NCBI GenBank assembly: GCA_965199715.1
Contig: OZ241322.1
Location: 992,001-1,056,000 of the forward strand
Source: Vicinamibacteria bacterium
GTDB taxonomy: Bacteria; Acidobacteriota; Vicinamibacteria; Marinacidobacterales; Marinacidobacteraceae
Direction: 5' to 3'
Length of the DNA stretch: 64,000 bases
Shown: positions 4,463 through 40,974 of the stretch, in pieces
Position numbering within the stretch: position 1 is the stretch's first letter
Layout: each line of letters begins with the position of its first letter
The notes under the pieces: generated by a model
The model's input: only the letters and a program-made list of their open reading frames with translations
Told to the model about the DNA's origin: nothing
Databases searched by the model: none
Program-made: the position numbers and the translations under genes

Positions 4463-4469
4463 GGGGGTC

Positions 4470-8549: not shown

Positions 8550-8938
8550 CGCGAGACCGCCGCGGCGGATCCGCACGGCGCCGGCGCCGGCGCCGGCGCC
8601 GGGATTCGATTGGACGTCATCGGGTTGCTGAGAATACCGCGCCGGCGTCCGTCCTCGCGCACGTCGGGAACCCGCGCCAGGCCGCCGCACGCGAAATCGC
8701 GGCTCGCCGGAGCCGCGAACCGTCGAGCTTCGCGGCGGGTTCCGCCGCGCCACGGTGCGGCGCGCGCCTTCGGACCCTGCTGCTCGTCCTCGTCACGCCA
8801 TTCCGGCGTGCGGGCCGGCGTTCGCGTCCGTGCCGCCGGGGGGCGGCGGGGGTCGGCGCGAGCAGGCGGCGGTCACGCCGGTTCTCGAGGATCGGGACGA
8901 GGACGAGATCGCCGCCGGCTGCGGGAGCCGCTGCGCGC

Positions 8939-22500: not shown

Positions 22501-22684
22501 GGTTTTCGATCTCACTCGGGGCGGCGCCCTCGTAGTCGGTGCGGACGCTCAGCGACGGATAGGTGATGTCCGGCAGCAGATCCACCGCAAGGCGACCGAA
22601 CCCGACCCAGCCGAACACCACGATGGCGATGAACATCACCAGCACGGTCACCGGCCGGCGGATCGAGAAGTTGACGATGCGCAC
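19520..22684 (-). CDS. RND efflux permease (AcrB/MdtBC-like), subunit 2
   Basis: SIRRPV, GLLVDNSIVVLE, GIVVNNAILL, RLRPILMT. Confidence 0.93.
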   Translation of the reverse strand: MRIVNFSIRRPVTVLVMFIAIVVFGWVGFGRLAVDLLPDITYPSLSVRTDYEGAAPSEIENLITKPIENAVGVVNNVVRVVSSSRPDRSEVTLEFGWGTDMDIAALDVRERLDIVQLPLDAPRPVLLRYDPSLDPILRYGLTGDEDLVRLRLIAEQEIQRSLERADGVAAALVSGGLEEEIHVELDERRIAGLGLSTSAVVNRLAQENVNLAAGQLLDGGTEYLVRTINEFERPEDMRDVVVDAERTSIRLEDVATIRRGTREREVITRIDGEEAVEIAIYKEGGANTVTVADEVHRRVEELTERMTQVGDGLSLILITDQSRYIRQSVSEVLTTAMYGGVLAVLVLILFLGELRSTLIIGVSIPISVVGTFFLMYLFGVSLNIMSLGGITLGIGLLVDNSIVVLEAIKRKRQEGLELVAAARAGAAEVGQAVIASTMTTVSVFLPIVFIEGVAGQLFGDQALTVTFSLVTSLLVALTLIPMLASRDLKRRSETEREPVRTGLGRWISRVAGLVAGGIWIVLGAVVTGAQMLVQAVLWLPSRIFRIGYNAVVRAYPPVLDSALRHPLRVSAVAVSFFAGAILLYPSLGAELVPELVQGEFFVDTELPPGSHLDLNSRRMQRLEAAAAALPGARTVYASIGASGQQGGIAGELRENIGQLLVVLDPPVDREREDRAMETLRPVLDAEEDRQYIFGRPSYFSFRTPVELEIRGFNLTLLDGIASDAVALLEEIPGLTDIESSTEGGNPELQIRFDRDRIATLGLNVGQLGNLIRSKVLGDVATEIQREDRAIDIRLRAGESFRDSVADLGNLNVAEGAAQAVPLSAVAEVEEVDGPAEIRRADGERVATITANVVGRDMASVGADIEAAMMTIPLPAGFDWNLGGQQEEMETSFDSMRFAILLAIFMVYLVMASQFESLLHPFVILFSVPFSLVGVVLALWLLDVTVSVVVLIGVIMLAGIVVNNAILLLDATNRLRRSGVPKVDALRQAGRIRLRPILMTTATTVLGLFPMALGLGEGSELRSPMAVAVIGGLLLSTLLTLLVIPAVYRLMDRSA

Positions 22685-22698
22685 GGGGAGTTACGCGG

Positions 22699-27200: not shown

Positions 27201-27443
27201 CTCCTCGGGAGAGCTGGACTCGTAGCTCACGTCCACCCAGAGGCTGTTCGAGCCGAACGACGGCAGGAACTCGAGCGGCAGTCGCGTGAGCGACACGTAC
27301 CCGAGCACCACCAGCCCGATCGCGATCATCGAGATCGTGACCCGGCGATCCACCGCGAATCGGGCCAGCGGACTCCCGCCTCTGGCCGGAACCGGAGCGT
27401 GATCGTGCTCGTGGTCGTGAAGCTGTTGGGATGGGGAAGTCAT
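24222..27443 (-). CDS. RND efflux permease, subunit 1
   Basis: FAVDRRV, GMLADPAIVVID, GIVVNNAIVL, RLRPVLMT; His-rich N-terminus. Confidence 0.92.
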   Translation of the reverse strand: MTSPSQQLHDHEHDHAPVPARGGSPLARFAVDRRVTISMIAIGLVVLGYVSLTRLPLEFLPSFGSNSLWVDVSYESSSPEETERLIVRPLEESLGTIPGITALSATARANSGNVSVEFEETADMDMMMVEARDRVDRVRHLLPDDVERIRIRRFQSSDIPIVRFVVGAPWDRDRLFAFSEDVVQRRLERIEGVASADVRGVRRRELQVSMDPQRMAALGVDVRDVAAALAQDNVNVSGGPITEGPRKLLVRTVGEFQRPEDIRNTPIGMTGLRISDVADVQFDYPVQRSFDFLNGEESVTFSIYKSSTANVLQVADGVRAELEAIAAIPRYEGMAVRYIMDSSVDVRDGLSQLAVAGVFGGSLAVLILLLFLQKARTTALVAVAIPLSIITTFVIMYVAREAGFVDTTLNVMSLFGLMVAVGMLADPAIVVIDAISRHYTEHGESAREAAVHGASEVTMPIVAGAATTMCVFVPLVFLGSTLGGFFRLFTDFGFTLSVVIVASLLIALTVVPMTAGVVLRNEKRAYSATMRLLARLHGRLIRATLRRRMVSLMVAFGLMGVAWWLYQGIERSGFTDTPEREVTINVDVPRNYSLEETRTVMEDLAATIDEHREELEIADVLHEYGRSGGRSRGGFGGGGRRFEIYLKEEAEAERTVAEITDDIRALLPVVPGVQFRIAQSRGRGPGRGTGINIDLKGDDTKVLELVSGRVVERLRTLPSVRDVDTSLESGSEEVHVRVDQDRALQTGIATSAVAQSVRSALTSRPVGYIESDEREVDVVVQYPESERERMTQLDSMPVFAAGVQTPIGAMADFDLARGARSIEREDRRPKLSISANTSTPGASFRLMDQVREILADVPLPPGYEWSFDRWSRMGQSDFSAAGFAFAFALLLIYLIMVALFESFLHPAVIMFAVPFSFIGVGLTLKLTGETLGSTAMLGLVLLAGIVVNNAIVLIAHVNALRKRGHSRDEALVIGSEHRLRPVLMTALTTFCGLLPLAAPYFLPGIFGTADGRAGNWAPIGLVLAGGLPTSTFLTLLLVPTLYAVADDFKTLFWPFAPQAIPEESSVPAPADAR

Positions 27444-27853
27444 GGACGCTCCTCCCGTCGGGGTCCGCTCCGGCGGCCTCGGTGGCGGTGGTCGGCCTCT
27501 CGGATCATCGAGTCGAATCGTTCGCGTTGCTCCGGAGTCAGGATCTCGCGAATCTGCTCCCGGAAACGGCGGCGCAGCTCCCGGTACCGAGCGATGGACG
27601 CCTCGCGGAACTCACTGGCTTCGGAATGGTTTGTTTCCACGATTACGTGGAGCGCGGCCGTTTGTTCCTCATTCAGGCCAAGATCGGTCGCTACGCGGCG
27701 CATCATGTCCTCGGGAGCGCCCCGGCCCGGGCTTCCGCCGGGGCCGATCCGGCCGAGCAGGAAACCCGCGGAACCGCCGAGCAGGAGCAGCAGCAGCGGA
27801 ATGGCCCGCCGCCAGCGGCGATTACGGGCGGTGGAACGAGGTTCAGGGCCCAT
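27440..27853 (-). CDS. Spy/CpxP-like (LTXXQ) periplasmic protein
   Basis: TM anchor, LGLNEEQ and ILTPEQ motifs; start estimated. Confidence 0.7.
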   Translation of the reverse strand: MGPEPRSTARNRRWRRAIPLLLLLLGGSAGFLLGRIGPGGSPGRGAPEDMMRRVATDLGLNEEQTAALHVIVETNHSEASEFREASIARYRELRRRFREQIREILTPEQRERFDSMIREADHRHRGRRSGPRREERP

Positions 27854-28226
27854 TTCCAACCCCTCCGCCGAGCGCGATGTGGAGCACCGGCTCGATCTCC
27901 GCCTCCGGATCCAGCCCGGGAAGCGGCGGCGGGTCAAACGCTTCGGATTCAAGGTCGGCGATCGCCGGCGCGGCCGGCTCGGGCCACGCGAGGAAGACCG
28001 TAATGCCGATGGCGAGCAGCGTCGCCGCGGCGAGCCGGAAGCCGAGCTCGCGGAAGGTCCAACGCGAGACCGGCGACAGCTCGTCCCGGCGCTGGCGGAA
28101 GCGGGCGACGAATCCCGGGTCCGGTTCGCAGCGAACGCTCAACAGCTCGTCGATCCGCCGCATCCGTTCCCGCTCCCGGAGCGCCGCTTCCTCGGCGGGA
28201 TTGAGGTCTCGGGAGCGGGATTTCAT
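27843..28226 (-). CDS. Putative single-pass anti-sigma factor
   Basis: Directly downstream of the ECF sigma (ATGA overlap); PDPGFVARF motif then one TM. Confidence 0.6.
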   Translation of the reverse strand: MKSRSRDLNPAEEAALRERERMRRIDELLSVRCEPDPGFVARFRQRRDELSPVSRWTFRELGFRLAAATLLAIGITVFLAWPEPAAPAIADLESEAFDPPPLPGLDPEAEIEPVLHIALGGGVGNGP

Positions 28227-28792
28227 GGCGCGGTCACGAGCGCGAGCAGCTTCTTCCGGGCTCGGTGGACGCGGGTCTGGATCGTGCCCGCGGGGACTCC
28301 GGCGGCTTCGGCGATTTCACGGTACGTCATTCCGACCACCACTTTGAGAAGGAGCGGTTCGCTCTCTTCCGCCGCAAGCGAGCGCATCGCCCGGGCGAGG
28401 TCGGCGCGCTCGCGAAGCCGGTCGTCGGGGTCGGGCGAGACGACTCCGAGGCGGCGCGCCAGCCGCTCGCGCCGAGCCGCCCGGCGCAGCGCGTCGTGAG
28501 CGACGCGGACGGCGATGCGGCACAGCCACGCGGCCACCGGCCCCTCGCCCCGGAAGTCGGCGGCCCGTCGGAACGCCCGCAGGAACGTCTCCTGCGCCGC
28601 GTCCTCGGCCGAAGCGGGATCGCTGAGCACCGAGAGCGCGACGGCCCGGACCCTTGCTTCGGTGCGCCGCACGAGCTCGTCGAACGCGGCCTCGTCCCCC
28701 GAGACCCGAAATCGCTCCAGCAGCGCCCGCTCCTCGGCGTTTTCGCGGGCTCGGTCACGGGCGGGCTCCTTCCTGGAAACGGGACGGGTCAT
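28223..28792 (-). CDS. ECF RNA polymerase sigma factor
   Basis: GDEAAFDELV, AEDAAQETFLRA, AWLCRIA, GMTYREIA..GTIQTRVHRAR; start could be 28864. Confidence 0.9.
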   Translation of the reverse strand: MTRPVSRKEPARDRARENAEERALLERFRVSGDEAAFDELVRRTEARVRAVALSVLSDPASAEDAAQETFLRAFRRAADFRGEGPVAAWLCRIAVRVAHDALRRAARRERLARRLGVVSPDPDDRLRERADLARAMRSLAAEESEPLLLKVVVGMTYREIAEAAGVPAGTIQTRVHRARKKLLALVTAP

Positions 28793-28877
28793 CGCGTGGG
28801 TCGCCGGCGCGACTTCCTCAGGAGCAAGACGCGCCGGGCCCTCGGAATTGTTTTCCGGCCGCATAGAGTGCCCCGCC

Positions 28878-29999
28878 ATGAGCGTCCACCGGATCGAGAC
28901 CAGAAGCATCCATGCGGGCCCCCGGGATCCGGGCGGATCGGTCGCGCCGCCGATCCATCTCTCGACGACGTTCGAGCGCGACGAGGCGGGCGAGCTGCGT
29001 TCGGGATACCTCTACAGCCGGACCGCCAACCCGGATCGGGAGGCGCTCGAGACCGTTGTCGCCGATCTTGAGGGAGGCGCGTCGGCGTTCGCCTTCGCCT
29101 CGGGACTGGCCGCGCTGCATTCGCTCTTCCTCGCCCTGAACCCCGGCGATCTGGTGCTCGCGCCGCAGGATGCGTACCACGGCACGACCCACCAGTTGCG
29201 GGGCTCGCTCCGGCGGTGGGGGCTGCGAACGCGGCCCACCGACTTCCTCGATCCGGCCGATCTCGAAGCGGGGCTGGCGGAGCGCCCGGCGCTCATGCTG
29301 CTGGAGACCCCGTCCAACCCGATGCTGCGCGTCACGCCGATCGAGAACACGGCGCGGCGAGCCCGGGAGGCCGGGGCGCTCGTCGCCGTGGACAACACGT
29401 GGATGACTCCGGTGCTCCAACGGCCGCTGGAGCTCGGCGCGGACATCGTCGTCCACGCAACCACCAAGTACTTCGGCGGCCACAGCGACGTCACCGGGGG
29501 CGCGGTCGTGCTGAAGGAGGACGGGGCGCTCGGAGAACGGCTGCGAGACATTCAGACCGGAGACGGAGCGGTGCCCGCGCCGTTCGACTGCTGGCTGCTC
29601 CGCCGCGGGATCCGAACGTTGCCGCTGCGGGTCCGCGCCCAGTCGGAGAACGCCGGCAAGGTAGCCCGGTTTCTGGACGGCCATCCGGTGGTGCTCGCGA
29701 CGTTCTACCCGGGGCTTCCGGATGACCCCGGCCACAAGACCCAGAGGGATCAGGCCGAGGGGTTCGGGGCGATGCTCTCGTTCCGGGTGCGGGGCGGCGA
29801 AGAGCGTGCGCGGCGAACGCTTTCCCGGGTGCGGCTCTTCGTGCGGGCGACGAGCCTCGGCGGGGTGGAGAGCCTGATCGAGCACCGCGCTCCGGTGGAG
29901 GGGCCGCACACGAAGACGCCGCGGGATCTGGTTCGGATGTCGGTGGGACTCGAGAACGCCGAGGATCTGATCGCGGATCTCGCGCAAGCGCTCGAGTGA
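28878..29999 (+). CDS. Cys/Met metabolism PLP enzyme (cystathionine gamma-synthase/lyase family)
   Basis: PPIHLSTTF, YSRTANP, ETPSNP, VDNT, HATTKYFGGHSD, SLGGVESL. Confidence 0.92.
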   Translation: MSVHRIETRSIHAGPRDPGGSVAPPIHLSTTFERDEAGELRSGYLYSRTANPDREALETVVADLEGGASAFAFASGLAALHSLFLALNPGDLVLAPQDAYHGTTHQLRGSLRRWGLRTRPTDFLDPADLEAGLAERPALMLLETPSNPMLRVTPIENTARRAREAGALVAVDNTWMTPVLQRPLELGADIVVHATTKYFGGHSDVTGGAVVLKEDGALGERLRDIQTGDGAVPAPFDCWLLRRGIRTLPLRVRAQSENAGKVARFLDGHPVVLATFYPGLPDDPGHKTQRDQAEGFGAMLSFRVRGGEERARRTLSRVRLFVRATSLGGVESLIEHRAPVEGPHTKTPRDLVRMSVGLENAEDLIADLAQALE

Positions 30000-30209
30000 A
30001 CCCCGGGAGGGCTGCGGATTTCCGTCCTACGCATGCGTAGGTGGGCGTCGCGAATATCCGACTCGGGCTTCCCGCCGGACGCCGGAGCGCCCGGAACGAG
30101 CTTGCGCTTCCCGCCGGTCAGCGGTGACTCCCTTTCGGTTCCATAAGCCGGAAAACCGTCTGGACGCCCCGCCGGGGATTCGTTTCGAGTGTACTACGGC
30201 GGGAGGTGG

Positions 30210-30269
30210 CTACCAGTCCGCGGAGTCCTCGTCGTACGCCGAGGTCGGCAGCCGGTGCGAGTGTTCCCA
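30210..30269 (-). pseudogene. Relic 3' end of a second MpaB-like oxygenase gene
   Basis: Translates WEHSHRLPTSAYDEDSADW*, versus WEHSYRLPTNIYDEHSQDW* at the end of the intact gene (14/19 identical); upstream part degenerate. Confidence 0.8.
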
Positions 30270-30335
30270 GACCCGGGCGAGGCCGAAGCGGCGGCCGAAA
30301 CTTCAGGCCAGCATGAGTGCATTGCGGGCGATCGG

Positions 30336-30420
30336 TGCCGGGAGCGGGACTCGAACCCGCACGCCCCCGCTGGGGCCGGAGGTTTTAAGCCTCCCGCGTC
30401 TGCCTTTCCGCCATCCCGGC
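30336..30420 (-). tRNA. tRNA-Leu(TAA)
   Basis: GCCGGGA acceptor stem, GGAGG-CT TAA AA-CCTCC anticodon arm, long variable arm, GGTTCGAGTCC; followed by CCG, so CCA is not encoded. Confidence 0.95.
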
Positions 30421-30434
30421 CGCCGCCTCGCTCG

Positions 30435-31610
30435 TTACCAGTCCTGCGAATGCTCGTCGTAAATGTTCGTCGGCAGACGGTACGAATGTTCCCAGTCGCC
30501 CAGATTCGCCACATCAAGCAGCGACTTGAATTGCTTTTGGGCGCGGGAAGCACCCCACTGCGGCACGGCGACTCTCAGGATGCGATCCCCAAACTTCTGC
30601 AGACGTAGTTTCGGCAACTCCAGCTTCAACCGGCCCTTCGGAAATTCGAGCCGCTCCGCGGTCTCGTCGCCGATCAATTCCCGCGCCACCTGATAGAGGA
30701 AGGCGGCGTACTTCCGGCGCACCTTGGGCTCGCCGAAGCCGAGCACGATCGGAGCGCTGTTGATGATGCTGTGCGCCATGATGATGGCGTCATCGTCCGG
30801 GTGCGGCTCGCAGGTCGTCGCCGTCCGAAACGCCCGGAGCGACGACTCGAAGTCGGAGAAGTGGATCCGCTCCGGGATACCCATGACGAGCGCCGTGTAG
30901 CGCCAGACGTGCACGAACCCCTCGATCTCCCGGCGGGTCATGTCGCCGCCGAGGCTCGCGCAGTGCTGCATCAGCCGCCCCGAGAAGGCCACCGACCCGA
31001 GAAGCATGTGCGCGGCGCTCAGCGGCATCCCGTACTCCGACTCGTCCCACTTTCCGGACTGCCGGATCAGGAGCCGCGACTGGGCGTGCACGAGGCGGAT
31101 GCGCAGGCTCAGTTTCCAGCCGTCGCCGCCCGGAAGGATGCCGCCGGGAAGATATTGGTTCACGAGCTGCAGGAGGTTCTGCTTCAGTCGCCGGACGCCG
31201 TTGTCCATGATCCGGCCGCGGATCCGGAAGGACTTGCTGATGAGGGTCGAGAAACCCTCAATGATCGCCCCGGCGACGAGCGCCCCGAGCACCAGCTCCG
31301 AGTTCCGGAGGAACCCTCGGGTCGCGTCCCGCGCCAGTTCGCGATCGAACCAGACCGGAAGCTCCCGGGAAGCCTCGATCAGCTCCCGGAGCGACGGTAG
31401 CGTGTCCGGTGGAAGCGCGTCGTAGTGATCCACGGCGCCGGCGATGGTCTGGTGCACTTCGTGCGGGGACCGCTTTTCGGCGAGTTCCGCCACAACCGCG
31501 TCCGCGAGCGGATCTCCGATCTGCGTGTGCCGGACGTACTCCTCCGCCCACCGCTCATCTACCTTGCGGGCGGCGGCGTAGCCGTCCACGTACTTCGTCG
31601 GAATGTTCAT
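30435..31610 (-). CDS. MpaB/Lcp-like heme-dependent oxygenase (DUF2236 family)
   Basis: GDPLADAVV, RIRLVHAQSR (heme His motif), WD..YGMP, HVWRY...MGI. Confidence 0.82.
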   Translation of the reverse strand: MNIPTKYVDGYAAARKVDERWAEEYVRHTQIGDPLADAVVAELAEKRSPHEVHQTIAGAVDHYDALPPDTLPSLRELIEASRELPVWFDRELARDATRGFLRNSELVLGALVAGAIIEGFSTLISKSFRIRGRIMDNGVRRLKQNLLQLVNQYLPGGILPGGDGWKLSLRIRLVHAQSRLLIRQSGKWDESEYGMPLSAAHMLLGSVAFSGRLMQHCASLGGDMTRREIEGFVHVWRYTALVMGIPERIHFSDFESSLRAFRTATTCEPHPDDDAIIMAHSIINSAPIVLGFGEPKVRRKYAAFLYQVARELIGDETAERLEFPKGRLKLELPKLRLQKFGDRILRVAVPQWGASRAQKQFKSLLDVANLGDWEHSYRLPTNIYDEHSQDW

Positions 31611-32079
31611 GACACTTCTCTGGGCCGCGCCGTCACCGTCGCGGGAACCGTCTCCTTGAGGCCCAAGCCGAAGCTTTTCGTCTCAAGAGAGGTCTCCGGG
31701 GAAAATTCGAATCGCCGGTCCTGAGCGAGCGCGGCGTGCGCAAACACGAACATCCGCTCCACGAATCCGCCCCACGGACAGGTGCGCTGCAAATGACCGA
31801 ACGGAGAGTACGCGTGCACCGGGCAACTCGGATGGGTCGGCTGCAGCCAGCGCTCGGGGCGGAAATCGGCGGCGTCGTCCCCCCAGTAGTCGCTGCGATA
31901 GTGGATCTGGAGCGTGCCCACATTGACGATCGTGTCCTTCGGAATGCGGAATCCGCCCAGTTCGCAGTCCGCGAAGGCAATGCGCGGCAGCAACACGTAC
32001 GGAGGCGCCGCTTCAGGAGGCCGAACTGGCCGCCCCGGGGACCCGGGGGCAGCGGCAGCGACTGGATCGCAGGTCTCAA
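31607..32079 (-). pseudogene. Internally deleted cytochrome P450 copy A
   Basis: GGAGG RBS and TTG start, LPPGPRGGQFGLLKRR joined out of frame to PYVLLPR...FRPERW...PFGHLQRTCPW...TVTARP; stop overlaps the oxygenase ATG. Confidence 0.85.
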
Positions 32080-32101
32080 ACAGGCGCCTCCGTTCATTGT
32101 C

Positions 32102-33475
32102 TCATGCCCGCGGCCGCGCCGTCACCGTCGCGGGAACCATACTCGTGAGGCCCACGCCGAAGCTGCGCATCTCGACCGGCGTGTCCGGGGCGAATTCGAA
32201 TCGCGAGTCCTGCGCGAGTTCCGCAAGCCCGTACACGAACATCCGCTCGGCGAATCCGCGCCACGGACAGATGCGGTGCTCGTAGCCGAAAGGAGTGAAC
32301 GCGTGCGCCGGGCAACCCGGATGGGCCTGCTGCAGCCATCGCTCGGGGCGGAAATCGGCGGCGTCGTCTCCCCAGTAGTCCTTGCGGACGTGCATCGGCA
32401 GCGCACCCACATGCACCACGGTGCCCTTCGGAATGCGGAAGCCGCCCAATTCGCACTCCTCGGTGGTCCGGCGCGGCAGCAACACGTAGGCGGGCGACGT
32501 GATCCGCAGCGTTTCGGCGCACACGGCGCGCAGGTACGGCAACCGGGCGAAGTCCTCCACTTCCACCGGGCGTCCGCCGAGCTGCCGATCCACTTCGGCC
32601 TCGACCTTCGCCCGAGCCTCGGGATGCCTCGCCAGATGGTGTGCGCCGCAGACCAGAGCGGCCACCGGCGCGTCGGAAAACCCCGTGATGAGGACGACCA
32701 GTTCATCGCGGATGTCCTTGTCGGACTTCCACTCCCAGTCCACGACCCCCTCGTCGTGGGCCCGCACCATGAAGGTGGCCACGTCCTCTCCGCTCCACTC
32801 GGGGTCCCGCGCCCGCTCGATGGCGTGGTACACCGGGCGGTCGAGGTTCGCGACGAAGCGCTTGACCCTCCGGTTGTGGGGAAGCGGCAGCTTGGCGAGG
32901 AGCTTGCTGCCCGGCAGGACCGACATCAGGATGTCCTGCCGCAGGCAGATCAGGAAGTTCTTGCCGTCCTCGGAGGCCACCTTCAGCTCGGGACCGAGGA
33001 TGGAGTCGAGCAGCCCCCGCCACATGAACTCTTCCATCTCGTACCGGAGCTGCACCTCCGCGCCCGGTCGGCATCGCTCCTTCAGGGAGCGGGCGCTGCG
33101 GACGATATGCGCGGAGTATTGCTTCAGCTTCTCGTCCGTGACCGCCGCCTCCATCAGGATGCGCCGCTCGGCGTGTTCCTCGCCCCGGCACGCCGGCAGG
33201 CACCCGTCGAGGAGGTGGTACACCGAAGGCGGGTTGGCCCACTCGAACGTGGGCTCGCGCTGGTACACCTCAAGCGATAGATCCGCCTCGAACACGAGGA
33301 GGTTCTTCATCCCGGGGATCTCGAAGTACACGAGGTCGCCGTATTCCTTGTGCAGATCCACGACGAGTCCGGGGAAGTCGGAACTGCGCCGCCACATGAG
33401 ACCGAACTTGCCGCCCCGGGGGCCCGGGGGCAGCGACAGCGACTTGATGTCCACACTCATCTCCTGTGTCTCCAA
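32102..33475 (-). CDS. Cytochrome P450, non-canonical
   Basis: PPGP N-terminal motif, ETLR (ExxR), FRPERW, heme loop PFGYEHRICPW; I-helix GFSDAP; start may be 33460. Confidence 0.92.
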   Translation of the reverse strand: METQEMSVDIKSLSLPPGPRGGKFGLMWRRSSDFPGLVVDLHKEYGDLVYFEIPGMKNLLVFEADLSLEVYQREPTFEWANPPSVYHLLDGCLPACRGEEHAERRILMEAAVTDEKLKQYSAHIVRSARSLKERCRPGAEVQLRYEMEEFMWRGLLDSILGPELKVASEDGKNFLICLRQDILMSVLPGSKLLAKLPLPHNRRVKRFVANLDRPVYHAIERARDPEWSGEDVATFMVRAHDEGVVDWEWKSDKDIRDELVVLITGFSDAPVAALVCGAHHLARHPEARAKVEAEVDRQLGGRPVEVEDFARLPYLRAVCAETLRITSPAYVLLPRRTTEECELGGFRIPKGTVVHVGALPMHVRKDYWGDDAADFRPERWLQQAHPGCPAHAFTPFGYEHRICPWRGFAERMFVYGLAELAQDSRFEFAPDTPVEMRSFGVGLTSMVPATVTARPRA

Positions 33476-33479
33476 TGTC

Positions 33480-33936
33480 TCACCCCGCGGGCCTCGCCGT
33501 AACGGTCGCCGCCAGCATCCCCTTCAGACCGTTCCCGAAGTTGACCTTCTCGATCGAGGCGCCCGGAGCCAACTCCAGACGCGAATCCTGCGCGAGCGAC
33601 GCGAGCCCGTCCACGAACATCCGCTCCGAGAACCCGCCCCACGAACAGCCCCGGGGCTCGAGACCGAACGGCAGGAACGCGTGCACCGGACAACTCGGAT
33701 GCGCCTGCCGCAGCCAGCGCTCCGGGCGGAACTCGGCGGCGTCCGCCCCCCGGTTGTCCCTGCGAGAGTGGGTCGGGGGCGCCGCGATGACGACAATGGC
33801 GCCCTCGGGGATGCGGCAGCCGCCCAGTTCGCAGTCCGCCACGGTCCGCCGCATCGGTCATGCGGCGCTTCAGCAGGCGGAGTCCTCCGAGTTTCGGCCT
33901 CGGCGGCAGGGGCGGCGACTGGATGTCCGTCCGCAT
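33480..33936 (-). pseudogene. Internally deleted cytochrome P450 copy B
   Basis: GGAG RBS and ATG, DIQSPPLPPRPKLGGLRLLKRRMTD joined out of frame to RRTVADCELGG...FRPERW...PFGLEPRGCSW...TVTARP. Confidence 0.85.
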
Positions 33937-33958
33937 GGTCACACTCCGAAAGGCCCGC

Positions 33959-36900
33959 TCACCCACGCGATGCGCGCAACTGGACCGACGTCAAGGCGGG
34001 CACGATGAGCATCAGAACGAAGGTGGCGAAGAGAACCCCGAATCCGATCGACGCCGCATAGGCGACAAGGAACTGGGCTTGGATCGACGGTTCCAGAAGC
34101 AGCGGAACGAAGGCCAGAAACGTCGTGATCGACGTGAGAAGAATGGGGCGGAAGCGGCTCTTCGCGCCCTCGACGATCGCGGTTCGGGGAGCTTCGCCCG
34201 CCTTCAGGCGGCGGTTGACGGCGTCAATCATGACGAGCGAATCGTTCACGACGATCCCGGTGAGCCCGAGCATCGCTGTAATGGAGGTCGTATCAAGGTC
34301 CAAGCCGAGGACGAGGTGGCCAAGAATCGCCCCCACGATCCCGAACGGGATCGCGGCCATCACGATCAGCGGCTTGGTGTATGAGCCGAGCGGGATGGCC
34401 AGCAACGCGTAGATCACGAGCAGCGCCATCATAAATCCCCGGTTGAGCGCCCCGAAAGACTCCGCCTGTTGTTCCTGTTGACCGGCGACTGACCAGCGGA
34501 GATCCGGGTCCCGTTCCAGCACGTCGGCCAGTGCGCCGCCCTCGAGCGCTTCGATGACCGCTGCGCCCGAGACGACGGCGAAATCCACGTCGGCGGAGAC
34601 GGTCACGATCCGCTCGCCGTCGCGCCGCCGGATGGTGGCGGGCCCCTGGTCCACCCCCAGCGAGGCCACGCGCTCCAGCGGCACGACCGCGCCGCCCGGA
34701 GCCTGAACGAGGAAGTTCTCAATATCGGCGATAGCGTCCCTCTCGGCCTCGGGAAGCCGGGCGAGCACCGGCACGTCCTCGCGATCGCGGGGAACCCGGA
34801 GCGCCTCCTCTCCGTACACCATCGACCGCAACTGAGAGGAGAGGTCGCCGAGCGTCAGCCCGAGGGTGCGGGCCTCCGGTTTCAGCGCGAGCTGGACCTC
34901 TTGGTACCCGCCAACGTGATCGGAGCGGATGTCGAAGACGCCCTCCAGCGAGTTCAACCCCGCGACCACCCCGTCCCCGATCGGGGCCAACCGATCCGGG
35001 TCCGGGTGCGAGATGGCGATCTCGACGGGGCGCCCCAACTCCATGAGCTCCGAACTGAAAGTGAGCCCCGTAGCCTGCGGCAGCGGACCCGCTTCCTCTC
35101 GCCATCGCCGCGCCAGCTCGTCAGCGTTCATCTCCCGCTGCTCAACGTTGACCAACTTGATCTCCACGGCGGCGATGTGCGACTGCGGATTCACGCTCGG
35201 TTCCCGCTGGACGCCGCCGCCGGGGGCCCGCGTGGGCACGCCGAGCGTGATCACGGTCCCCACCAGCTCCGACGGACGGCCCTCGTTGAGCGCCCTGAGC
35301 GCACGGCGACCAGCGGCGTCCAGTTCCTCGGCGATCGCCAGCGTGGTCGCCGCCGGGGTCCCCTCGGGCATCTCGAGACGAGCGCTCACGATGTCTCCGG
35401 TCGCTGGCGGCGCGAGCCGGATATTGATGACGCCGGCGGGGATCAAGCCGATGGTCACGATGCTGACGCCGACGGCGGTGGCGAGCGCCACGGTCGGCTG
35501 CCGGGTGACGGCTTCAAGCGCGGCGTTCAGGGGACCGTCGCGGAACCACGCCAGTCTCCGGTCCGCGCCGCGCTGCACCCGCAGGACGGCGCTCTCAAGG
35601 CGGTTCGTGACCGTTCTCCCCGGATCCGGGAGGTGCGAAAGATGGTTCGGCAGCACCAGCAGCGACTCGACCAGCGAAATCAGCAGCATCGCGATCATGA
35701 TCACCGGGACGGCGCTGAGGATGTCGCCGATGCCGGTGGGCATGAAGATCATCGGGAAGAACGCCGCCACCGAGGTCAGAACCGCGAAGATGACGGGGGT
35801 CCGCACCCTGAGCGCGCCCCGGATCGCAGCCGTGGCGCCCGGCAGCCCGCGACGGCGCTCGCGATAAATGCTTTCGGACACGACGATGGCGTCGTCCACG
35901 ACGACGCCGATCGCCAACACGAAAGCGAACAGCGAAATGATGTTGAGGGAGTGCCCGGCGAGGAGCAGCGCCGCGAGCGCCCCGATCCCGGACACCAGGA
36001 TCCCGACCGAGGCCCAGAACGCGAGTCGGATCTCGAGAAACAGCCCGAGCGCGAGCACCACCAACATGAGACCGAGCGCACCGTTCTTCAACAGCAGGTT
36101 GAGCCGCTCCCGGTACGACAGAGCGTCGTTGTTCAGCACACTGATCGAGACGCCCGGCGGCAAGGACGCCCGCACTTCATCCACGTGGGAAAGCACGACT
36201 GCCGCGATCTCAAGGACGCTTTCGTCCGAAGTTCTCCAGACCTCGACGAAGGCGGCGGGCTCCCCGTTGTAGCGGGCCACCATGTCCACGTCCTTGAACC
36301 CGTCGCGCACCTCGGCGATGTCCCCGAGCCGAACCACGGTGCCGTCGCTGCGACTCAGGACCACGACGTCCTCGAATTCCTGCTGCGTCAGGCTGCGGCC
36401 CAGCGTCCGTACCCGGAGGCGGGCGTCGCTCGTGTCCATGGCTCCCGCCGAAGCCTCAAGCGAGCCGGCGCGGACCGCGCCCGCGAGATCGGCGAGCGTC
36501 AGGCCGAGCGCCCGCAGCCGGGCCCGGGGAACCTCGATCGAGATCTCGTCATCCCGGATGCCGGCGACAGTGACGAAGGAGACCTCAGGAAGCGCCGTGA
36601 GCGAATCTTCGACGCGAAGCGCGAGCGTCTTGAGGATGCGCTCGGGGACGTCTCCGTGAAGGACCAGCCGAACCGCGCTCTGGCGGTTGGTCATTTCCCG
36701 AACGCGGGGACGTTCGGAGTCAGCCGGAAGTCCTTCGATGCCGCTGACGGCGGACTCGATGTCGTCGAGCGCCCGCTGCATATCGCCGTCCGCGTCCACT
36801 TCGACAATGACCGAGGCGACGCCTTCGGCCGCAATCGAGCTGACTTCCCAAACCTGATCGACTCCGCTTACGGCCTCCTCGACGCGGGAGACGATGGAGT

Positions 36901-37114
36901 CGTCCACCTCGCTCGGCGTCGCCCCCGGCCACGGAACGCTGACCTCAACGGCGTCGAAGGACAGGCTCGGAAAACCCTCCTCAACCAGCCCCGGGCAGGA
37001 AACGAGGCCCATCAGGAGGAGCGCCGCCATGAGCAGGTTCGCCGCGACGCCGTTCTTCGCCATGTAGGCGATGGCGCCGCGTTCTTCCCGAGGCGGGTGG
37101 TCTTCCGGAGTCAC
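33959..37114 (-). CDS. RND efflux permease
   Basis: NGVAANLLM, GVVVDDAIVVSE, GIVVNDSLV, RFRPILLT. Confidence 0.93.
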   Translation of the reverse strand: MTPEDHPPREERGAIAYMAKNGVAANLLMAALLLMGLVSCPGLVEEGFPSLSFDAVEVSVPWPGATPSEVDDSIVSRVEEAVSGVDQVWEVSSIAAEGVASVIVEVDADGDMQRALDDIESAVSGIEGLPADSERPRVREMTNRQSAVRLVLHGDVPERILKTLALRVEDSLTALPEVSFVTVAGIRDDEISIEVPRARLRALGLTLADLAGAVRAGSLEASAGAMDTSDARLRVRTLGRSLTQQEFEDVVVLSRSDGTVVRLGDIAEVRDGFKDVDMVARYNGEPAAFVEVWRTSDESVLEIAAVVLSHVDEVRASLPPGVSISVLNNDALSYRERLNLLLKNGALGLMLVVLALGLFLEIRLAFWASVGILVSGIGALAALLLAGHSLNIISLFAFVLAIGVVVDDAIVVSESIYRERRRGLPGATAAIRGALRVRTPVIFAVLTSVAAFFPMIFMPTGIGDILSAVPVIMIAMLLISLVESLLVLPNHLSHLPDPGRTVTNRLESAVLRVQRGADRRLAWFRDGPLNAALEAVTRQPTVALATAVGVSIVTIGLIPAGVINIRLAPPATGDIVSARLEMPEGTPAATTLAIAEELDAAGRRALRALNEGRPSELVGTVITLGVPTRAPGGGVQREPSVNPQSHIAAVEIKLVNVEQREMNADELARRWREEAGPLPQATGLTFSSELMELGRPVEIAISHPDPDRLAPIGDGVVAGLNSLEGVFDIRSDHVGGYQEVQLALKPEARTLGLTLGDLSSQLRSMVYGEEALRVPRDREDVPVLARLPEAERDAIADIENFLVQAPGGAVVPLERVASLGVDQGPATIRRRDGERIVTVSADVDFAVVSGAAVIEALEGGALADVLERDPDLRWSVAGQQEQQAESFGALNRGFMMALLVIYALLAIPLGSYTKPLIVMAAIPFGIVGAILGHLVLGLDLDTTSITAMLGLTGIVVNDSLVMIDAVNRRLKAGEAPRTAIVEGAKSRFRPILLTSITTFLAFVPLLLEPSIQAQFLVAYAASIGFGVLFATFVLMLIVPALTSVQLRASRG

Positions 37115-38283
37115 CGGTCTCCCTCACCACCGGACCGCACGGCCATGCCCTCGACGCCCGCCTCGACGCCACCGACCACGAGCATCTGGCCGGCGGTCAG
37201 CTCGCCGGTCACGAGCAGGTCGTCCTCGAGGCGCTCCAGCACCCGCACCGGCACCATCCTGAGCCTTCCGTCGTCCACGACCCATACCTCGTCGCCCGGA
37301 CGGAGCGCGGCTCGCCGGATGCGGAAGTAGGCGTCGGGCGTCACCCCCTCCAACTCCACGTCCACGAATTTCCCGACGAGAAGCGGCGGCCCGTCGTTCG
37401 GGAACGGATTCGGCACGTGCACCACCACATCGATCGTGCGCGTCGCCTCGTCCAGAGTCGTCTCGGCCCGATCCACCCAACCGGTCCACGTATGGCGACT
37501 CCCGCCGTAGTCGGCGACCACCCGGGCGCGGATGCGCCGGTCGGCGGTTCCGGCCCGGAGTCCCCAAAGGCGCGGCAAGAGCGCCGCCGCCTGATCCGAG
37601 AGCGGAACCACGACCTCGACCGAGCCGGCGGCGTGCAGCACGCCGACTCGTTCCCCGGCAGCGACCAGACGCCCGATGTCCACGGACGCCGAGCTCACCA
37701 CCGAGTCGAACGGCGCGACCACCTCGGTGAGGGCGAGATCGAGCTCGGCTTCCGCAAGCGCGGCCCGTTCCCGCTCCACGGCGGCTTCGGCCGCCTTGAT
37801 CTGCGGCTCCCAGAGCGCGAGCGCTCCGGCGTCCGGGGCGTCGCCCCCGGCTCGATTCCGAAAAGACTCGTACTGACCTTCCGCAATGCGGGCTTCTTCC
37901 CGAGTTCGCAGCAGCTCGACTTCGTGGACCGCGACCCCGGCCCGAGCCCGCTCCACCCGGTGGCGGTAGAGGGCGTCGTCAAGGCGGAAGAGGGTCTCCC
38001 CCGCCGCGATGCGGCCGCCGCTGCGGAAAGCCGGACTCACGTAGTCCACGAAACCGCCGACTCCGGGAGCCACGTCAATTCGAGCGCTCGGGCGCACCGT
38101 CCCGGATCCCTGCACCGGGATGGCCCCCTCGCCGATAACCACGGCCTCGGTCATGGCGAACGGGATCGCAGGCGGCGGGTCCCTTCGGGCCGGCTCCGGC
38201 CGCGAGGTCACCATCACGACGGTGACCACGACAGCGCCGGCGACGATCCCCACGGCGATCAGCCAGCTCATCCATCGACTCAT
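37111..38283 (-). CDS. RND periplasmic adaptor (MFP)
   Basis: N-terminal TM, GTVRP, VVAPFD, LDEATRT, LLVGKFV. Confidence 0.9.
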   Translation of the reverse strand: MSRWMSWLIAVGIVAGAVVVTVVMVTSRPEPARRDPPPAIPFAMTEAVVIGEGAIPVQGSGTVRPSARIDVAPGVGGFVDYVSPAFRSGGRIAAGETLFRLDDALYRHRVERARAGVAVHEVELLRTREEARIAEGQYESFRNRAGGDAPDAGALALWEPQIKAAEAAVERERAALAEAELDLALTEVVAPFDSVVSSASVDIGRLVAAGERVGVLHAAGSVEVVVPLSDQAAALLPRLWGLRAGTADRRIRARVVADYGGSRHTWTGWVDRAETTLDEATRTIDVVVHVPNPFPNDGPPLLVGKFVDVELEGVTPDAYFRIRRAALRPGDEVWVVDDGRLRMVPVRVLERLEDDLLVTGELTAGQMLVVGGVEAGVEGMAVRSGGEGDR

Positions 38284-39743
38284 GGGAGGTCCGCTCCTTC
38301 CAGGGCTTCGTCGCCCGTCCACGCTCCGCCGAGCGCCCGGTGCACTCGGAGCCGGGCGAGGTTCAGGTTCCGCTCCGCCCCGGCGAGCGCGGACTCCACG
38401 TCAAGCACCGTACGCGAGGCGTCGAGGTAATCGGCGTAGCCGCCGAGCCCGGAGGCGTAGCGTTCGGCTCGGGTCTCCATCGTGGACTCCGCGTCGCCCC
38501 GGCGGGCCGCGAGGAGCTCGTAGCGGCGGCGTTCGTGGCGGAGCGCCGCAAGCGCCGCCTCCACCTCGTTCACCGCCGTCACGACCGTGCGTCCGAAGCC
38601 GGCCGCGAGCTCGTCGAAGCGCGCCTCGGCGAGCGCCTGCTCGCCCTTGAGCCGGCCGGCGTCGAAGACCGGATGGAGGAGGTTGCCCATGAGGTTGCCG
38701 AACCACTGCTTCACGTCGAAGAGGTCGCCGGCCTCGACGGCCTGGAGGCCGATCGTCCCGGCGAGCGAGAGCCGCGGCAGGAGCGCGGCGCGCCGCGCTT
38801 CGACTTCGTGCCCGGCCGCTTCCAGCCGGCTCCACGCGGCCTGCACGTCGGGGCGCTGGCGCAGCAGGTCGGCGGGAACGCCGGCCGGCACGGGCGCCCC
38901 GGCGGGCGCCGGACGGAGCTCGTCGGGAAGGATCGCCGCGAGGTCCCGCCGGTGGCCGCCGAGCAGGATCGCGAGGCGGCTTTCCGCCGCGGCCAGCCGG
39001 CTCTCGAGTTGCGGGACGCCGGCCTCGGTGGCGCGGGAGTCCTGGCGCACGCGCTGCAGCGAGAGCGAGGCCGCGAGGCCGCGCGCGTAGCGCAGCTCCG
39101 CCAGCTCCTCCCGCTCCCGGAGCACTCCGGAGGTTTCGCGGGCGAGCGCGATCCGGCGGCGCAGGTCCACGACGTCGAAGTAGGCGGCGATGGTCTCCGA
39201 AAGGACCCCGATCCGCGCCGCGCGGAGGTCCGACTCGGAGGCCATGAGCTGCGCTCCGGCCGCCCGGGAGGAATGGGCCAGCCGGCCCCAGAGGTCGATC
39301 TCCCAGGACACGTCCGCGGCGAGCGAGTACGTCGTGAGGCCGAGCCGCTCGGGCAGCGTGAACCCGGCCGCGCCGAGCGTGTCCTCGAGCCCCAGGTCCC
39401 GGAACTGGGCGCCGATCCCGGCGTTCACCGGCGTGTCGAACGTGTCCCCCGCGGCGCGGGCGCGGACGACCGGAAGGATCGCGGCGTCGGCGAGGCGCGC
39501 CCGGACCCGCGCCTGCTGGACCCGGGCGACGGACTCGGCGAGGTCGAAGTTCTGTTCGAGCGCCCGCTCCACGACCGCGTCGAGCGCCGGATCCTCGAAG
39601 ACGCGCCACCACGCCCGCGGCTCGGCGCCTCCGGACCCGGCCTCCTCCGCGTATGTCTGCGGCAGCTCGGGCGGAGCCGGCTCCGGCGCCCGGGCGGCCG
39701 AGCAGCCGGCGAGCGCGACCGGAATCAGCAGCCGCAGGCTCAT
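38280..39743 (-). CDS. NodT/TolC-family outer membrane efflux lipoprotein
   Basis: Lipobox LAGC, WWRVFEDPAL, SWEIDLWG, LLRQRPDV, RALGGAW. Confidence 0.92.
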   Translation of the reverse strand: MSLRLLIPVALAGCSAARAPEPAPPELPQTYAEEAGSGGAEPRAWWRVFEDPALDAVVERALEQNFDLAESVARVQQARVRARLADAAILPVVRARAAGDTFDTPVNAGIGAQFRDLGLEDTLGAAGFTLPERLGLTTYSLAADVSWEIDLWGRLAHSSRAAGAQLMASESDLRAARIGVLSETIAAYFDVVDLRRRIALARETSGVLREREELAELRYARGLAASLSLQRVRQDSRATEAGVPQLESRLAAAESRLAILLGGHRRDLAAILPDELRPAPAGAPVPAGVPADLLRQRPDVQAAWSRLEAAGHEVEARRAALLPRLSLAGTIGLQAVEAGDLFDVKQWFGNLMGNLLHPVFDAGRLKGEQALAEARFDELAAGFGRTVVTAVNEVEAALAALRHERRRYELLAARRGDAESTMETRAERYASGLGGYADYLDASRTVLDVESALAGAERNLNLARLRVHRALGGAWTGDEALEGADLP

Positions 39744-40270
39744 GCGGGGAGACGTCGCTCGGCCAACCCGTCGAGCGCGAGACCGAACCAAGCGGTGAAC
39801 GACTCCGGCGCCTCGGCCATGCGGGCGCGGACCGCCGCGAGCCCCTCCCACTTCCAGTCCATCGCCTCGGCGGGATTCGGGGACGCGGATCCGTCGAACC
39901 GACCGAGAAGGACATGGTCGTATTCGTGCTCGATCATTCCGTGGTCGAGCTCGGCCCGGTAGCGGAAGGCGAACGCCGGCTCCAGCGGGCAATCGAACCC
40001 CATCTCGTGGCGCAGCCGGCGGTGGGCGGCGTCCAGCAGCGCCTCTCCGGCCAGCGGATGGCTGCAGCACGCGTTCGTCCACAGCCCGCCCGAGTGGTAC
40101 TTGCCGAGCGCGCGGCGCTGCAGCAGCGTCCGCCCGGATGCGTCGAACACGAAGATGGAGAAGGCCCGATGAAGGATCCCCTCGCGGTGGGCGGCCATCT
40201 TCTCCACGACTCCGACGGGGCGATCCTCAGCGTCCACGGCGACCAACATGTCCCCCGACTCGCTTCGCAT
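39740..40270 (-). CDS. idi: Isopentenyl-diphosphate delta-isomerase, type 1
   Basis: LHRAFSIFVF, LLQRRA..KYH..GLWTNACCSHP, EHEYDHV. Confidence 0.95.
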   Translation of the reverse strand: MRSESGDMLVAVDAEDRPVGVVEKMAAHREGILHRAFSIFVFDASGRTLLQRRALGKYHSGGLWTNACCSHPLAGEALLDAAHRRLRHEMGFDCPLEPAFAFRYRAELDHGMIEHEYDHVLLGRFDGSASPNPAEAMDWKWEGLAAVRARMAEAPESFTAWFGLALDGLAERRLPA

Positions 40271-40290
40271 GGCGCCGCCTGCCCGCCCGC

Positions 40291-40299
40291 ACTCTATCA
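40291..40299 (-). promoter_or_regulatory. Putative extended -10 (TGaTAGAGT) upstream of idi
   Basis: Motif lies ~20 nt upstream of the idi ATG, just downstream of tRNA-Cys. Confidence 0.35.
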
Positions 40300-40327
40300 G
40301 CCCGCACGCAGCCGGAATCAGCTCGGG

Positions 40328-40400
40328 AGGCGGCGGGCGGATTCGAACCGCCGAATAGAGGTTTTGCAGACCTCCGCCTTGGCCACTTGGCTACGCCGCC
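40328..40400 (-). tRNA. tRNA-Cys(GCA)
   Basis: GGCGGCG acceptor, GAGGT-CT GCA AA-ACCTC, GGTTCGAATCC, U discriminator. Confidence 0.95.
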
Positions 40401-40413
40401 ACGGCCCGGCGCC

Positions 40414-40488
<75 letters not shown>

Positions 40489-40530
40489 CCTCGGGCCGCC
40501 GAAGCGACCGGAAATCATAGCGGGAGCGGG

Positions 40531-40974
40531 TCAGAACGCGTCCCGGCGGATACGGATCTCCGGTCGGGCGAGAACGCGCGCCCACCCGCTCGCCGCCGCC
40601 GGGAACTGCACCTCGACGACGTCCATCCGCAGCCGCGAACCCGCCGGAATCCGGCCCCGCGCCGACTCCCGGGCCCACATGCGCCGCGCCGCCCGGCGGA
40701 TCCGGCGGCGCTTGGCCGCGTCCACCTTCTCGATCGGCCGCCCGAAGCCGCCGCGTCGGGTCTTGACCTCGACGACCGCGAGCGCGCCCCCCTCCCACGC
40801 CACCACGTCCAGCTCGGCGTCGGCGGAGGCGGGGCCGCCGCGGTAGTTGCGGGCGACGACCCGGTATCCGGCGCGGCGCAGCGCCCGGACCGCGATCCGC
40901 TCCCCGCGCGCGCCGAGCCGCAGGTGGGGCGCGGTCCGGAACCGGCGGATCAGCGATCGGAAGCGCGTCGCCAG
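40531..40974 (-). CDS. YraN family nuclease-fold protein
   Basis: LGARGERIA, GYRVVARNY, ELDVVA, VEVKTR, RMDVV; start uncertain. Confidence 0.85.
   Translation of the reverse strand: MATRFRSLIRRFRTAPHLRLGARGERIAVRALRRAGYRVVARNYRGGPASADAELDVVAWEGGALAVVEVKTRRGGFGRPIEKVDAAKRRRIRRAARRMWARESARGRIPAGSRLRMDVVEVQFPAAASGWARVLARPEIRIRRDAF

Follow-up and report, generated by a model that had tools for sequence, protein, structure and literature searches.

Does a run of genes that joins an isoprenoid isomerase to an efflux pump, cytochromes P450 (P450s) and an oxygenase make up one system and, if it does, what would that system act upon? The question is raised by a stretch of 64,000 nucleotides from a Vicinamibacteria bacterium (contig OZ241322.1, positions 992,001 to 1,056,000; hereafter the window), in which the isomerase gene idi, an outer-membrane factor (OMF), a membrane-fusion protein (MFP), an RND permease, an array of P450 sequences and an MpaB/Lcp-family (DUF2236) haem oxygenase follow one another without interruption on the minus strand from 40270 to 30435. 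The co-occurrence of these genes across 77 loci from several phyla is far beyond chance, and it supports the conclusion that they form a functional unit. In our best explanation, to which we attach a probability of about 0.5, the run belongs to a module, conserved and passed on horizontally, that would tailor an isoprenoid lipid oxidatively inside the cell and export the product. Every part comes from a known family; the combination of an MpaB/Lcp-type oxygenase, a private RND clade and a P450 clade that lacks the usual I-helix threonine, often accompanied by a squalene-synthase-like gene and idi, is not described in the literature searched. We found no published account that places MpaB/DUF2236, RND and P450 genes in one cluster, whether squalene synthase is included or not, in that literature, which lay outside subscription journals and some supplements.

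A coupled run that recurs across phyla

The run contains four overlaps of 4 nucleotides, all read directly from the sequence. ATGA joins the stop of idi to the start of the OMF gene (39743-39740), the OMF gene to the MFP gene (38283-38280) and the stop of the last P450 reading frame to the start of the oxygenase gene (31610-31607), and GTGA joins the MFP gene to the RND gene (37114-37111). A first-pass annotation of this DNA had described a tightly coupled run, and the four overlaps, together with the common orientation of the genes between flanking tRNA genes (Table 1), bear that description out. Its pairing of a P450, called P450-A, with the oxygenase stands as far as the ATGA overlap is concerned, but the overlapping 'P450' is a frameshifted remnant and only one intact P450 is present. 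The same annotation had remarked on the lack of ferredoxin, reductase, terpene cyclase and prenyltransferase genes; a Pfam scan agrees, finding none of these four kinds of domain in the cluster and none in 38 other open reading frames (ORFs) of the window, a set picked crudely enough for small genes to escape it.

Table 1. Features of the run, from its upstream to its downstream boundary
Feature	Position in window	Strand	Basis or remark
tRNA-Cys(gca) and tRNA-Gly(gcc)	40326..40488 (tRNA-Cys 40326-40400)	-	ARAGORN; upstream boundary of run
idi, type 1 isopentenyl-diphosphate isomerase, 176 aa	39740..40270	-	NF002995, TIGR02150, NUDIX domain
OMF, NodT-type lipoprotein, 487 aa	38280..39743	-	TIGR01845, PF02321
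MFP (periplasmic adaptor), ATG start 38283	37111..38283	-	TIGR01730
RND permease, 1051 aa, AcrB/MexB-like, clade of its own	33959..37114	-	PF00873
P450 remnant 1: N-terminal piece of ~25 codons (ATG 33936), frameshift, C-terminal ORF of 124 aa (33480-33854)	33480..33936	-	PF00067 positions 344-448 only
Intact cytochrome P450, 457 aa from TTG	32102..33475	-	PF00067, 159.6 bits
P450 remnant 2: N-terminal piece of ~30 codons (ATG 32097), frameshift, C-terminal ORF of 129 aa (31607-31996)	31607..32097	-	PF00067 positions 340-447 only
MpaB/Lcp-family (DUF2236) haem oxygenase, 391 aa	30435..31610	-	PF09995
tRNA-Leu(taa)	30334..30420	-	ARAGORN; downstream boundary of run

The product of idi scores above two NCBIfam equivalog cut-offs (NF002995, 168.4 bits against 127; TIGR02150, 116.4 against 105.8). 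The OMF exceeds the cut-off of TIGR01845 (252.8 bits against 210.05), also matches PF02321 and carries a lipobox-like LAGC in its N-terminus, MSLRLLIPVALAGCSA, and the MFP exceeds the cut-off of TIGR01730 (137.9 bits against 94.9). The permease matches PF00873 at 461.7 bits and has efflux pumps as its best PDB matches (E 2e-60); it scores below the cut-offs of the named multidrug subfamilies (NF033617, 395 against 1250; NF000282, 309 against 1250; TIGR00915, 263 against 940). OMF, MFP and permease are encoded together in overlapping frames, which is the make-up of a tripartite RND efflux system.

A first hint of linkage beyond the window came from nine apparent contigs, eight besides the window's own, that were common to the lists of oxygenase and P450 matches. 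With an oxygenase profile of 44 sequences (A1) we drew relatives from species-representative genomes and kept 80 of 168 that were confirmed by tblastn, which gave 77 loci with at most 10 kb on each side. The neighbour counts reported rest on tblastn; the GC3-based gene picker is crude and missed the window's own idi and cysS. An RND of the same clade accompanies the oxygenase in 46 of the 77 loci (47-57% identity to the window protein), a P450 of the window's clade in 38 (30-44%), an MFP in 32, an OMF in 31 (54-66%) and idi in eight (60-70%). RND or P450 is present in 59 loci, and RND, P450, OMF and MFP are all present in 17. Blind clustering of the neighbouring ORFs returned as its top families RND (48 loci), P450 (36), MFP (34), squalene/phytoene synthase (SQS_PSY; 33) and OMF (29). 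When oxygenases were merged at 90% identity or more, 32 groups were left; RND was present in 23 of them, P450 in 22 and SQS_PSY in 13, and 29 had at least one of these three. The first-pass annotation had named the joint occurrence of the oxygenase, this P450 clade and an RND, with or without idi, as the check on its proposal, and these counts answer it in the affirmative.

Gene order differs between lineages, and the RND of the run has no more than 25-27% identity to the window's two other RNDs. For these reasons the association of the RND with the oxygenase is specific and not a consequence of the general abundance of pumps. A P450 of this clade is absent from 39 of the 77 loci and others have as many as four, so oxygenase and P450 do not form a fixed one-to-one pair. 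The window's two other RNDs belong to a second, unrelated efflux locus (19520-28909, minus strand) that resembles the MdtABC arrangement and encodes an ECF sigma factor, a putative anti-sigma factor, an LTXXQ (Spy/CpxP-like) protein, an RND, an MFP and a second RND.

A family that the first-pass annotation had not predicted probably connects the oxygenase to isoprenoid synthesis. This SQS_PSY protein (318 aa, PF00494) is encoded beside the oxygenase in 35 of the 77 loci by tblastn, as two subtypes that are about 33% identical to each other and stand in different gene orders; one further copy, in L044, was recovered by clustering with that of L072. Its best NCBIfam model is the eukaryote-type squalene synthase, with scores of 78-141 bits that fall short of the cut-off (286.75). 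The position of idi also varies, upstream of the OMF gene, between the OMF and MFP genes, downstream of the oxygenase or beside SQS_PSY. Because it has been retained through rearrangement, in different positions in eight loci, idi is probably not the bystander that the first-pass annotation had allowed it to be. The isoprenoid link which that annotation drew is strengthened by the SQS_PSY and idi counts and by a few genes for polyprenyl synthases, CrtI-like oxidases and sterol methyltransferases.

The oxygenase and the P450 array

The oxygenase matches PF09995 at 59.3 bits (cut-off 23), and the same domain is carried by all 120 homologues among the matches listed, at 56-68% identity. It is similar to the rubber oxygenase Lcp K30 with an E-value of 1.1e-10 in a single-sequence phmmer search and 1.1e-17 with a profile. 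R172, H175 and R179 align with Lcp R195, H198 and R202 in both alignments, and the resulting R-x2-H-x3-R pattern is invariant in the 44 relatives. According to the accessible text of PMC6311187, H198 of Lcp K30 serves as the proximal axial ligand of the haem and is 100% conserved in 495 homologues. Both alignments also place N145, Q148 and L149 at Lcp R164, K167 and T168, at about 18% identity, where a local shift is possible. R164 and T168 are 98.8% and 99.6% conserved and are described in the same accessible text as essential, or nearly so, for activity. Because these two residues, on which Lcps depend and which they almost never vary, are replaced here by N145 and L149, the window oxygenase does not, as judged from its sequence, count as an Lcp proper.

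An AlphaFold2 model of the oxygenase, built from the 44-sequence profile (pLDDT 82, pTM 0.83), predicts the all-helical Lcp fold: Foldseek matches it to the Lcp structures 5o1l and 5o1m at E 3.5e-8 with TM values of 0.63-0.66. The next-best match of the predicted fold is t-anethole oxygenase, by its name an alkene-cleaving enzyme. Look-alikes in the ESM Atlas came from generic MpaB clusters only. A helix begins at residue 5 of the model, and inspection of the N-terminus, MNIPTKYVDGYAAARKVDERW, revealed neither a hydrophobic stretch nor a twin arginine of an export signal. It is reasonable to infer that this enzyme works inside the cell and uses haem to cleave a double bond of an isoprenoid. 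Some of the related loci have a gene for an aldehyde dehydrogenase (ALDH; L006 and L041) next to that of the oxygenase or, in Thermoanaerobaculia-type loci, one for an acyl-CoA dehydrogenase (ACAD) directly downstream of it, as would be expected after alkene cleavage.

Three related P450 copies occupy 31607-33936, and only the middle one is full length; its database form has 452 residues, consistent with an ATG at 33460. The outer two are built in the same way, with 25-30 N-terminal codons that have a PPGP-type start, a change of frame and the final ~125 codons, in which PERW and the Cys loop are retained, and both are without roughly residues 30-330 of the intact copy. In its C-terminal part remnant 1 is identical to the intact P450 at 77 of 121 residues (64%; residues 335-455) and remnant 2 at 86 of 126 (68%; residues 331-456), and the 5' piece of remnant 2 has 91% DNA identity to the intact gene. 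A repeat finder reported two segments shared among the copies (families D1 and D2), in agreement with this build. The remnants are decayed paralogues, and one of them is the P450-A whose translation is coupled to that of the oxygenase. Relatives such as L050, L001, L004 and L056 have two intact P450s at this place. Both remnants have undergone the same type of internal deletion of ~900 nucleotides together with a frameshift, one on each side of the intact gene, and in both the junction directly follows the 'KRR' codons of the N-terminal piece. This suggests either a single deletion with later copying or a recombination hotspot. L004 and L005 are near-identical RND-P450-P450-oxygenase copies, each at a contig end within the same assembly, and represent a real duplication or an assembly repeat.

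The intact P450 has as its closest solved structures 7wzl, a putative P450 (E 5.3e-34), and 3dbg, CYP170A1 (E 4.6e-31). Its best NCBIfam models are terpene monooxygenases, albaflavenone monooxygenase (139.9 bits against a cut-off of 700) and pentalenene oxygenase (115.9 against 800), and no CYP74, CYP8A or CYP5A (allene oxide, prostacyclin or thromboxane synthase) is named among the best 60 of its 250 PDB matches. The ExxR (AETLRI), PERW (FRPERW) and Cys-ligand loop (FGYEHRIC) motifs are present. The typical acid-alcohol pair of the I-helix ([DE]-T) is absent: GFSDAP in the window protein aligns with PGSETI of CYP170A1, so that D-A stands opposite E-T. The 66 clade members aligned from the loci conserve ExxR and PERW, and in most the D or E of the I-helix precedes A, S, G or P, with proline as the usual next residue; E-T is kept in a single subgroup (ISYET). 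The 'Thr-less P450' of the first-pass annotation is therefore a trait of most of the clade as well as of the window copy. The window copies also have a haem loop with C-P-W, in which tryptophan stands two residues after the Cys ligand, at a position that is Gly or Ala in 60 of 62 other P450s covering the stretch. Scanned ORFs of eight representative loci yielded neither a ferredoxin nor a reductase domain, and one FAD-monooxygenase-like family occurs in three loci other than those eight. Bacterial P450s usually lack a nearby redox partner gene, so such an absence proves little and does not show independence from a reductase.

Neighbours and carriers of the module

The 77 loci come from Acidobacteriota (Vicinamibacterales, Holophagales, Thermoanaerobaculia including Ca. 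Multivorans, and Bryobacterales), Gemmatimonadota (Ca. Palauibacter, Longimicrobiales), Pseudomonadota (Gamma- and Alphaproteobacteria) and Rhodothermota (Rhodothermaceae), and several genomes contribute two loci each. The oxygenase subfamily shows unusually high conservation: between loci of different phyla the relatives are 52-68% identical to the window oxygenase, about the level that the housekeeping protein CysS reaches within the class. A search over all representatives yielded 2196 oxygenase relatives at E<=1e-3, of which only one representative reached at least 50% identity. In a FastTree tree of the oxygenases the classes are intermixed, with 18 label changes against a minimum of 8 and some long branches, a pattern that, on sequence grounds, fits horizontal spread of the module. 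Mobile-element or defence genes lie near some loci, among them TIR/ThsB-like, CcdAB, group II intron reverse transcriptase and phage-type integrase genes (L013:15030-16199; L024:18842-19425; L043 and L046, L046:7401-8627; L003, L005 and L053, L053:11603-12814), and the mobile-element genes also fit horizontal movement.

The position of the window's own copy was considered separately. It groups with Vicinamibacterales sequences that share the order OMF-MFP-RND-P450-P450-oxygenase, with or without idi (L050 has the same gene order as the window), and the window CysS is closest, among named matches, to Acidobacteria/Vicinamibacteria proteins at 60-70% identity. No att-like flanking direct repeat was detected in 29900-40700 beyond generic tRNA-arm similarity, and no integrase domain among the window ORFs scanned. 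Recent transfer is unsupported because neither repeat nor integrase was found and because the oxygenase, like CysS, groups with Vicinamibacteria sequences. A genomic island was likewise considered and rejected: the run lies between tRNA genes and its G+C content (0.66-0.69) is below that of the flanks (0.71-0.74) in a window of ~70% G+C, but the flanking repeat and the integrase domain are missing among the sequences scanned.

Other recurrent neighbours are SRPBCC/START-like proteins (eight loci), KshA-like Rieske oxygenases (six), EcKL/APH-type kinases (five), GPP34-P450 fusions (five) and sterol methyltransferases (three; L055, L058 and L060); a CrtI-like oxidase occurs with SQS_PSY in L044 and L072, and a polyprenyl synthase in L044 and L056. 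The loci L055, L058 and L060, from metagenome-assembled genomes of Gammaproteobacteria and Gemmatimonadetes, combine the oxygenase and the RND with a KshA/SdmA-like Rieske protein, Spondin_N, a GPP34-P450 fusion and Sterol_MT_C (~8-19 kb in L060), and may be a sterol-modifying variant of the module. Near the oxygenases of L044 (Paracoccaceae) and L072 (Rhodothermaceae) there are carotenoid-type genes (5-9 kb and 13-14 kb), among them one resembling phytoene synthase, instead of pump and P450 genes. In Holophagales-type loci (L009-L012, L018, L023 and others; 12-18 kb) an OMF gene is followed by two MFP genes parted by a GH16-like gene, and these by genes for an acyl carrier protein (ACP) and a lipid A-type acyltransferase; these loci showed no RND within 10 kb. 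A 494-aa family is encoded upstream of the oxygenase in 20 loci of Holophagales and Multivorans type (for example L010:7140-8624, minus strand) and has only a sub-threshold match to Haem_bd (22.8 bits against 27).

Gemmatimonadota habitats include marine sediments, sponges and corals according to the accessible literature, and sterol gene clusters are reported from sponge-associated bacteria (PMC10070321, accessible text); we take a link with marine or sponge habitats as a lead only. Elsewhere in the window a single ORF at 50905-54147 (minus strand) has an IcmF-like architecture in which a B12-binding domain is fused to a MeaB GTPase and to a methylmalonyl-CoA-mutase domain, and an AAA_21/AAA_15 ATPase gene (7227-8753, minus strand) adjoins suf iron-sulfur assembly genes (1251-6856).

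A candidate pathway, its rivals and known systems

The module that we favour would act on an endogenous lipid of squalene or polyprenyl type. In it Idi would balance isopentenyl diphosphate and dimethylallyl diphosphate for isoprenoid supply, and the squalene-synthase-like enzyme encoded beside the oxygenase in many relatives would make a C30/C40-type chain. The oxygenase, as a cytoplasmic haem b enzyme, could use O2 to cleave a trisubstituted C=C bond of that chain to an aldehyde and a ketone in the manner of Lcp and MpaB', and P450s, of which the window retains one intact and two decayed, would add further oxygen functions. The OMF-MFP-RND assembly would then carry the amphipathic product across both membranes. 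A number of observations weigh against this proposal. Lcp R164 and T168 are replaced, so the chemistry may differ from that of Lcp, and substrate and product are established for no member of this oxygenase subfamily. Nine of the 77 loci have none of RND, P450, OMF and MFP; several of these nine are cut by contig ends, and one, L054, has a partial RND at the contig edge. Many of the 77 loci are closely related, so that the raw counts overstate their independence. The window has no SQS_PSY in its 64 kb by tblastn with the two subtypes, and no prenyltransferase or cyclase appeared among the ORFs scanned. With a tryptophan two residues after the Cys ligand and two of three P450 copies dead, the window may have a weakened P450 step or be able to do without one. 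Efflux pumps together with P450s are equally typical of detoxification.

Detoxification or catabolism of foreign terpenoids or sterols is the main rival: the pump would expel a toxic lipophile that stems from the environment or a host, P450s and oxygenase would degrade what enters the cell, and idi and the squalene-synthase-like genes would be adjacent for other reasons. An AcrB/MexB-like RND with a standard OMF and MFP suits such a role. So do the genomes with two loci and the P450 number of 0 to 4, as in expanding families of xenobiotic defence, the mixing of classes and phyla in the oxygenase tree and, in some loci, neighbours of sterol-modifying type (KshA-like Rieske, EcKL-type kinase, sterol methyltransferase, sulfotransferase, GST); the ALDH and ACAD neighbours fit degradation too. 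We nevertheless think it unlikely, given that the commonest neighbours outside the pump are biosynthetic (SQS_PSY, of which two subtypes stand in several arrangements, together with idi), that the window cluster has no uptake system and no regulator of drug-pump type, and that idi is translationally coupled to the pump genes. If the pump instead served the cell's own envelope, the module would supply the outer membrane with a lipid of modified triterpenoid type and the RND would deliver it, as HpnN does for hopanoids. Loci of Gemmatimonadota type, in which the RND adjoins the oxygenase with no OMF or MFP of the window kind within 10 kb (some have another, HlyD/OEP, pair at a greater distance), point in this direction, as do the ACP and lipid A-type acyltransferase of Holophagales and Multivorans-type loci, the adjacent squalene-synthase-like genes and weak similarities to HpnN and MMPL. 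The HpnN models, however, have cut-offs of 752-1100 bits and reach only 20-27, the annotated loci revealed no cyclase, and the full OMF and MFP of the window and of 31-32 of the 77 loci point to export across the outer membrane, which makes delivery to the envelope improbable.

The first-pass annotation had proposed a different chemistry, in which the oxygenase forms a hydroperoxide or endoperoxide that the Thr-less P450 rearranges without a reductase, as in LOX/CYP74 or Ppo systems. The altered I-helix of most of the 66 clade P450s and the lack of ferredoxin and reductase domains in the ORFs scanned from the window and from eight representative loci speak for this scheme. Thr-less P450s that act as ordinary monooxygenases exist, however, P450eryF among them. 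The best NCBIfam models of the intact P450 are classical terpene monooxygenases, the rearranging synthases are not named among the best 60 of 250 PDB matches, 39 of the 77 oxygenase loci are without the P450 and others have several, and the P450 that abuts the oxygenase in the window is a remnant. Characterised MpaB/Lcp enzymes, in the accessible accounts of them, release cleaved carbonyls (aldehyde or ketone) and not hydroperoxides. On these grounds we regard the peroxide scheme as very improbable. That unrelated genes have merely come to lie side by side between tRNA genes might be read from the position of the run, its G+C content below the flanks and its decayed P450 copies; it is contradicted by the co-occurrence counts and by the four translational overlaps, and its likelihood is negligible.

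The oxidative tailoring and export of an isoprenoid lipid that we prefer can be set beside a reading that names the product. Here an apo-triterpenoid pathway would be shared horizontally by marine, partly sponge-associated bacteria: the neighbouring squalene-synthase-like enzyme would make the substrate, the oxygenase would cleave squalene or a C=C bond in a sterol or triterpenoid side chain, Thr-less P450s would finish the molecule and the dedicated RND would secrete it as a signal or defence compound. Such a pathway would be a bacterial counterpart of apocarotenoid signalling with a different cleavage enzyme; we consider it quite unlikely as it stands. Were a cleaved triterpenoid or polyprenoid indeed secreted, it would represent a new class of bacterial isoprenoid metabolites, give the large bacterial DUF2236 family its first physiological role outside rubber degradation and provide a natural substrate for a dedicated RND pump. 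The sterol methyltransferase in three related loci touches the debate on bacterial contributions to sterol biomarkers.

The known systems nearest to the module each resemble a part of it. LOX/CYP74 and fungal Ppo pairs likewise have an oxygenase encoded beside a P450 without the I-helix threonine, but the window oxygenase comes from a family unrelated to theirs, it has no constant P450 partner, and the PDB matches listed reveal no special sequence similarity of the window P450 to those families. CYP170A1 (3dbg) and pentalenene oxygenase are the best NCBIfam matches of the intact P450, and the haem loop of CYP170A1 is also without Gly two residues after the Cys ligand; the window P450 differs in scoring far below the cut-offs, in its replaced I-helix threonine and in having no terpene cyclase nearby. 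Lcp K30 (5o1l, 5o1m) shares with the window oxygenase PF09995, the predicted all-helical fold and the proximal haem histidine with its flanking arginines, from which O2-dependent cleavage of isoprenoid C=C bonds would be expected. The two are ~17-18% identical, and Lcp R164, K167 and T168 are N, Q and L in the window enzyme. Lcps, which cleave the C=C bonds of polyisoprene, are secreted (PMC6311187, accessible text), whereas the window oxygenase has no secretion signal, would be intracellular and has a pump, P450s and isoprenoid genes as neighbours.

Within the same superfamily, a Gordonia MpaB-family enzyme is the proposed agent of C=C cleavage in nitrile rubber, and the fungal MpaB', which serves the synthesis of mycophenolic acid, cuts a farnesyl side chain at its terminal C19=C20 bond, after which the product is oxidised and shortened, as far as the accessible accounts of both enzymes go. 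MpaB' is eukaryotic, bound to the endoplasmic reticulum and acts on a meroterpenoid, and it was compared with the window oxygenase by description; like the enzyme proposed here it is intracellular and biosynthetic, and some relatives of the window oxygenase have ALDH or ACAD genes beside them. The bacterial sterol and triterpenoid clusters of sponge-associated and marine bacteria, with sterol methyltransferase, SdmA/B and squalene synthase (PMC10070321), differ in that no oxidosqualene cyclase was seen in the annotated module loci and in that the accessible text of that paper makes no mention of MpaB/DUF2236 and has no occurrence of 'RND', 'cytochrome P450' or 'Rieske'. They resemble the module in its sterol-related form, in which three loci join the oxygenase and the RND to a sterol methyltransferase and a KshA/SdmA-like Rieske protein, and in the squalene-synthase-like genes that are common beside oxygenases of the window type.

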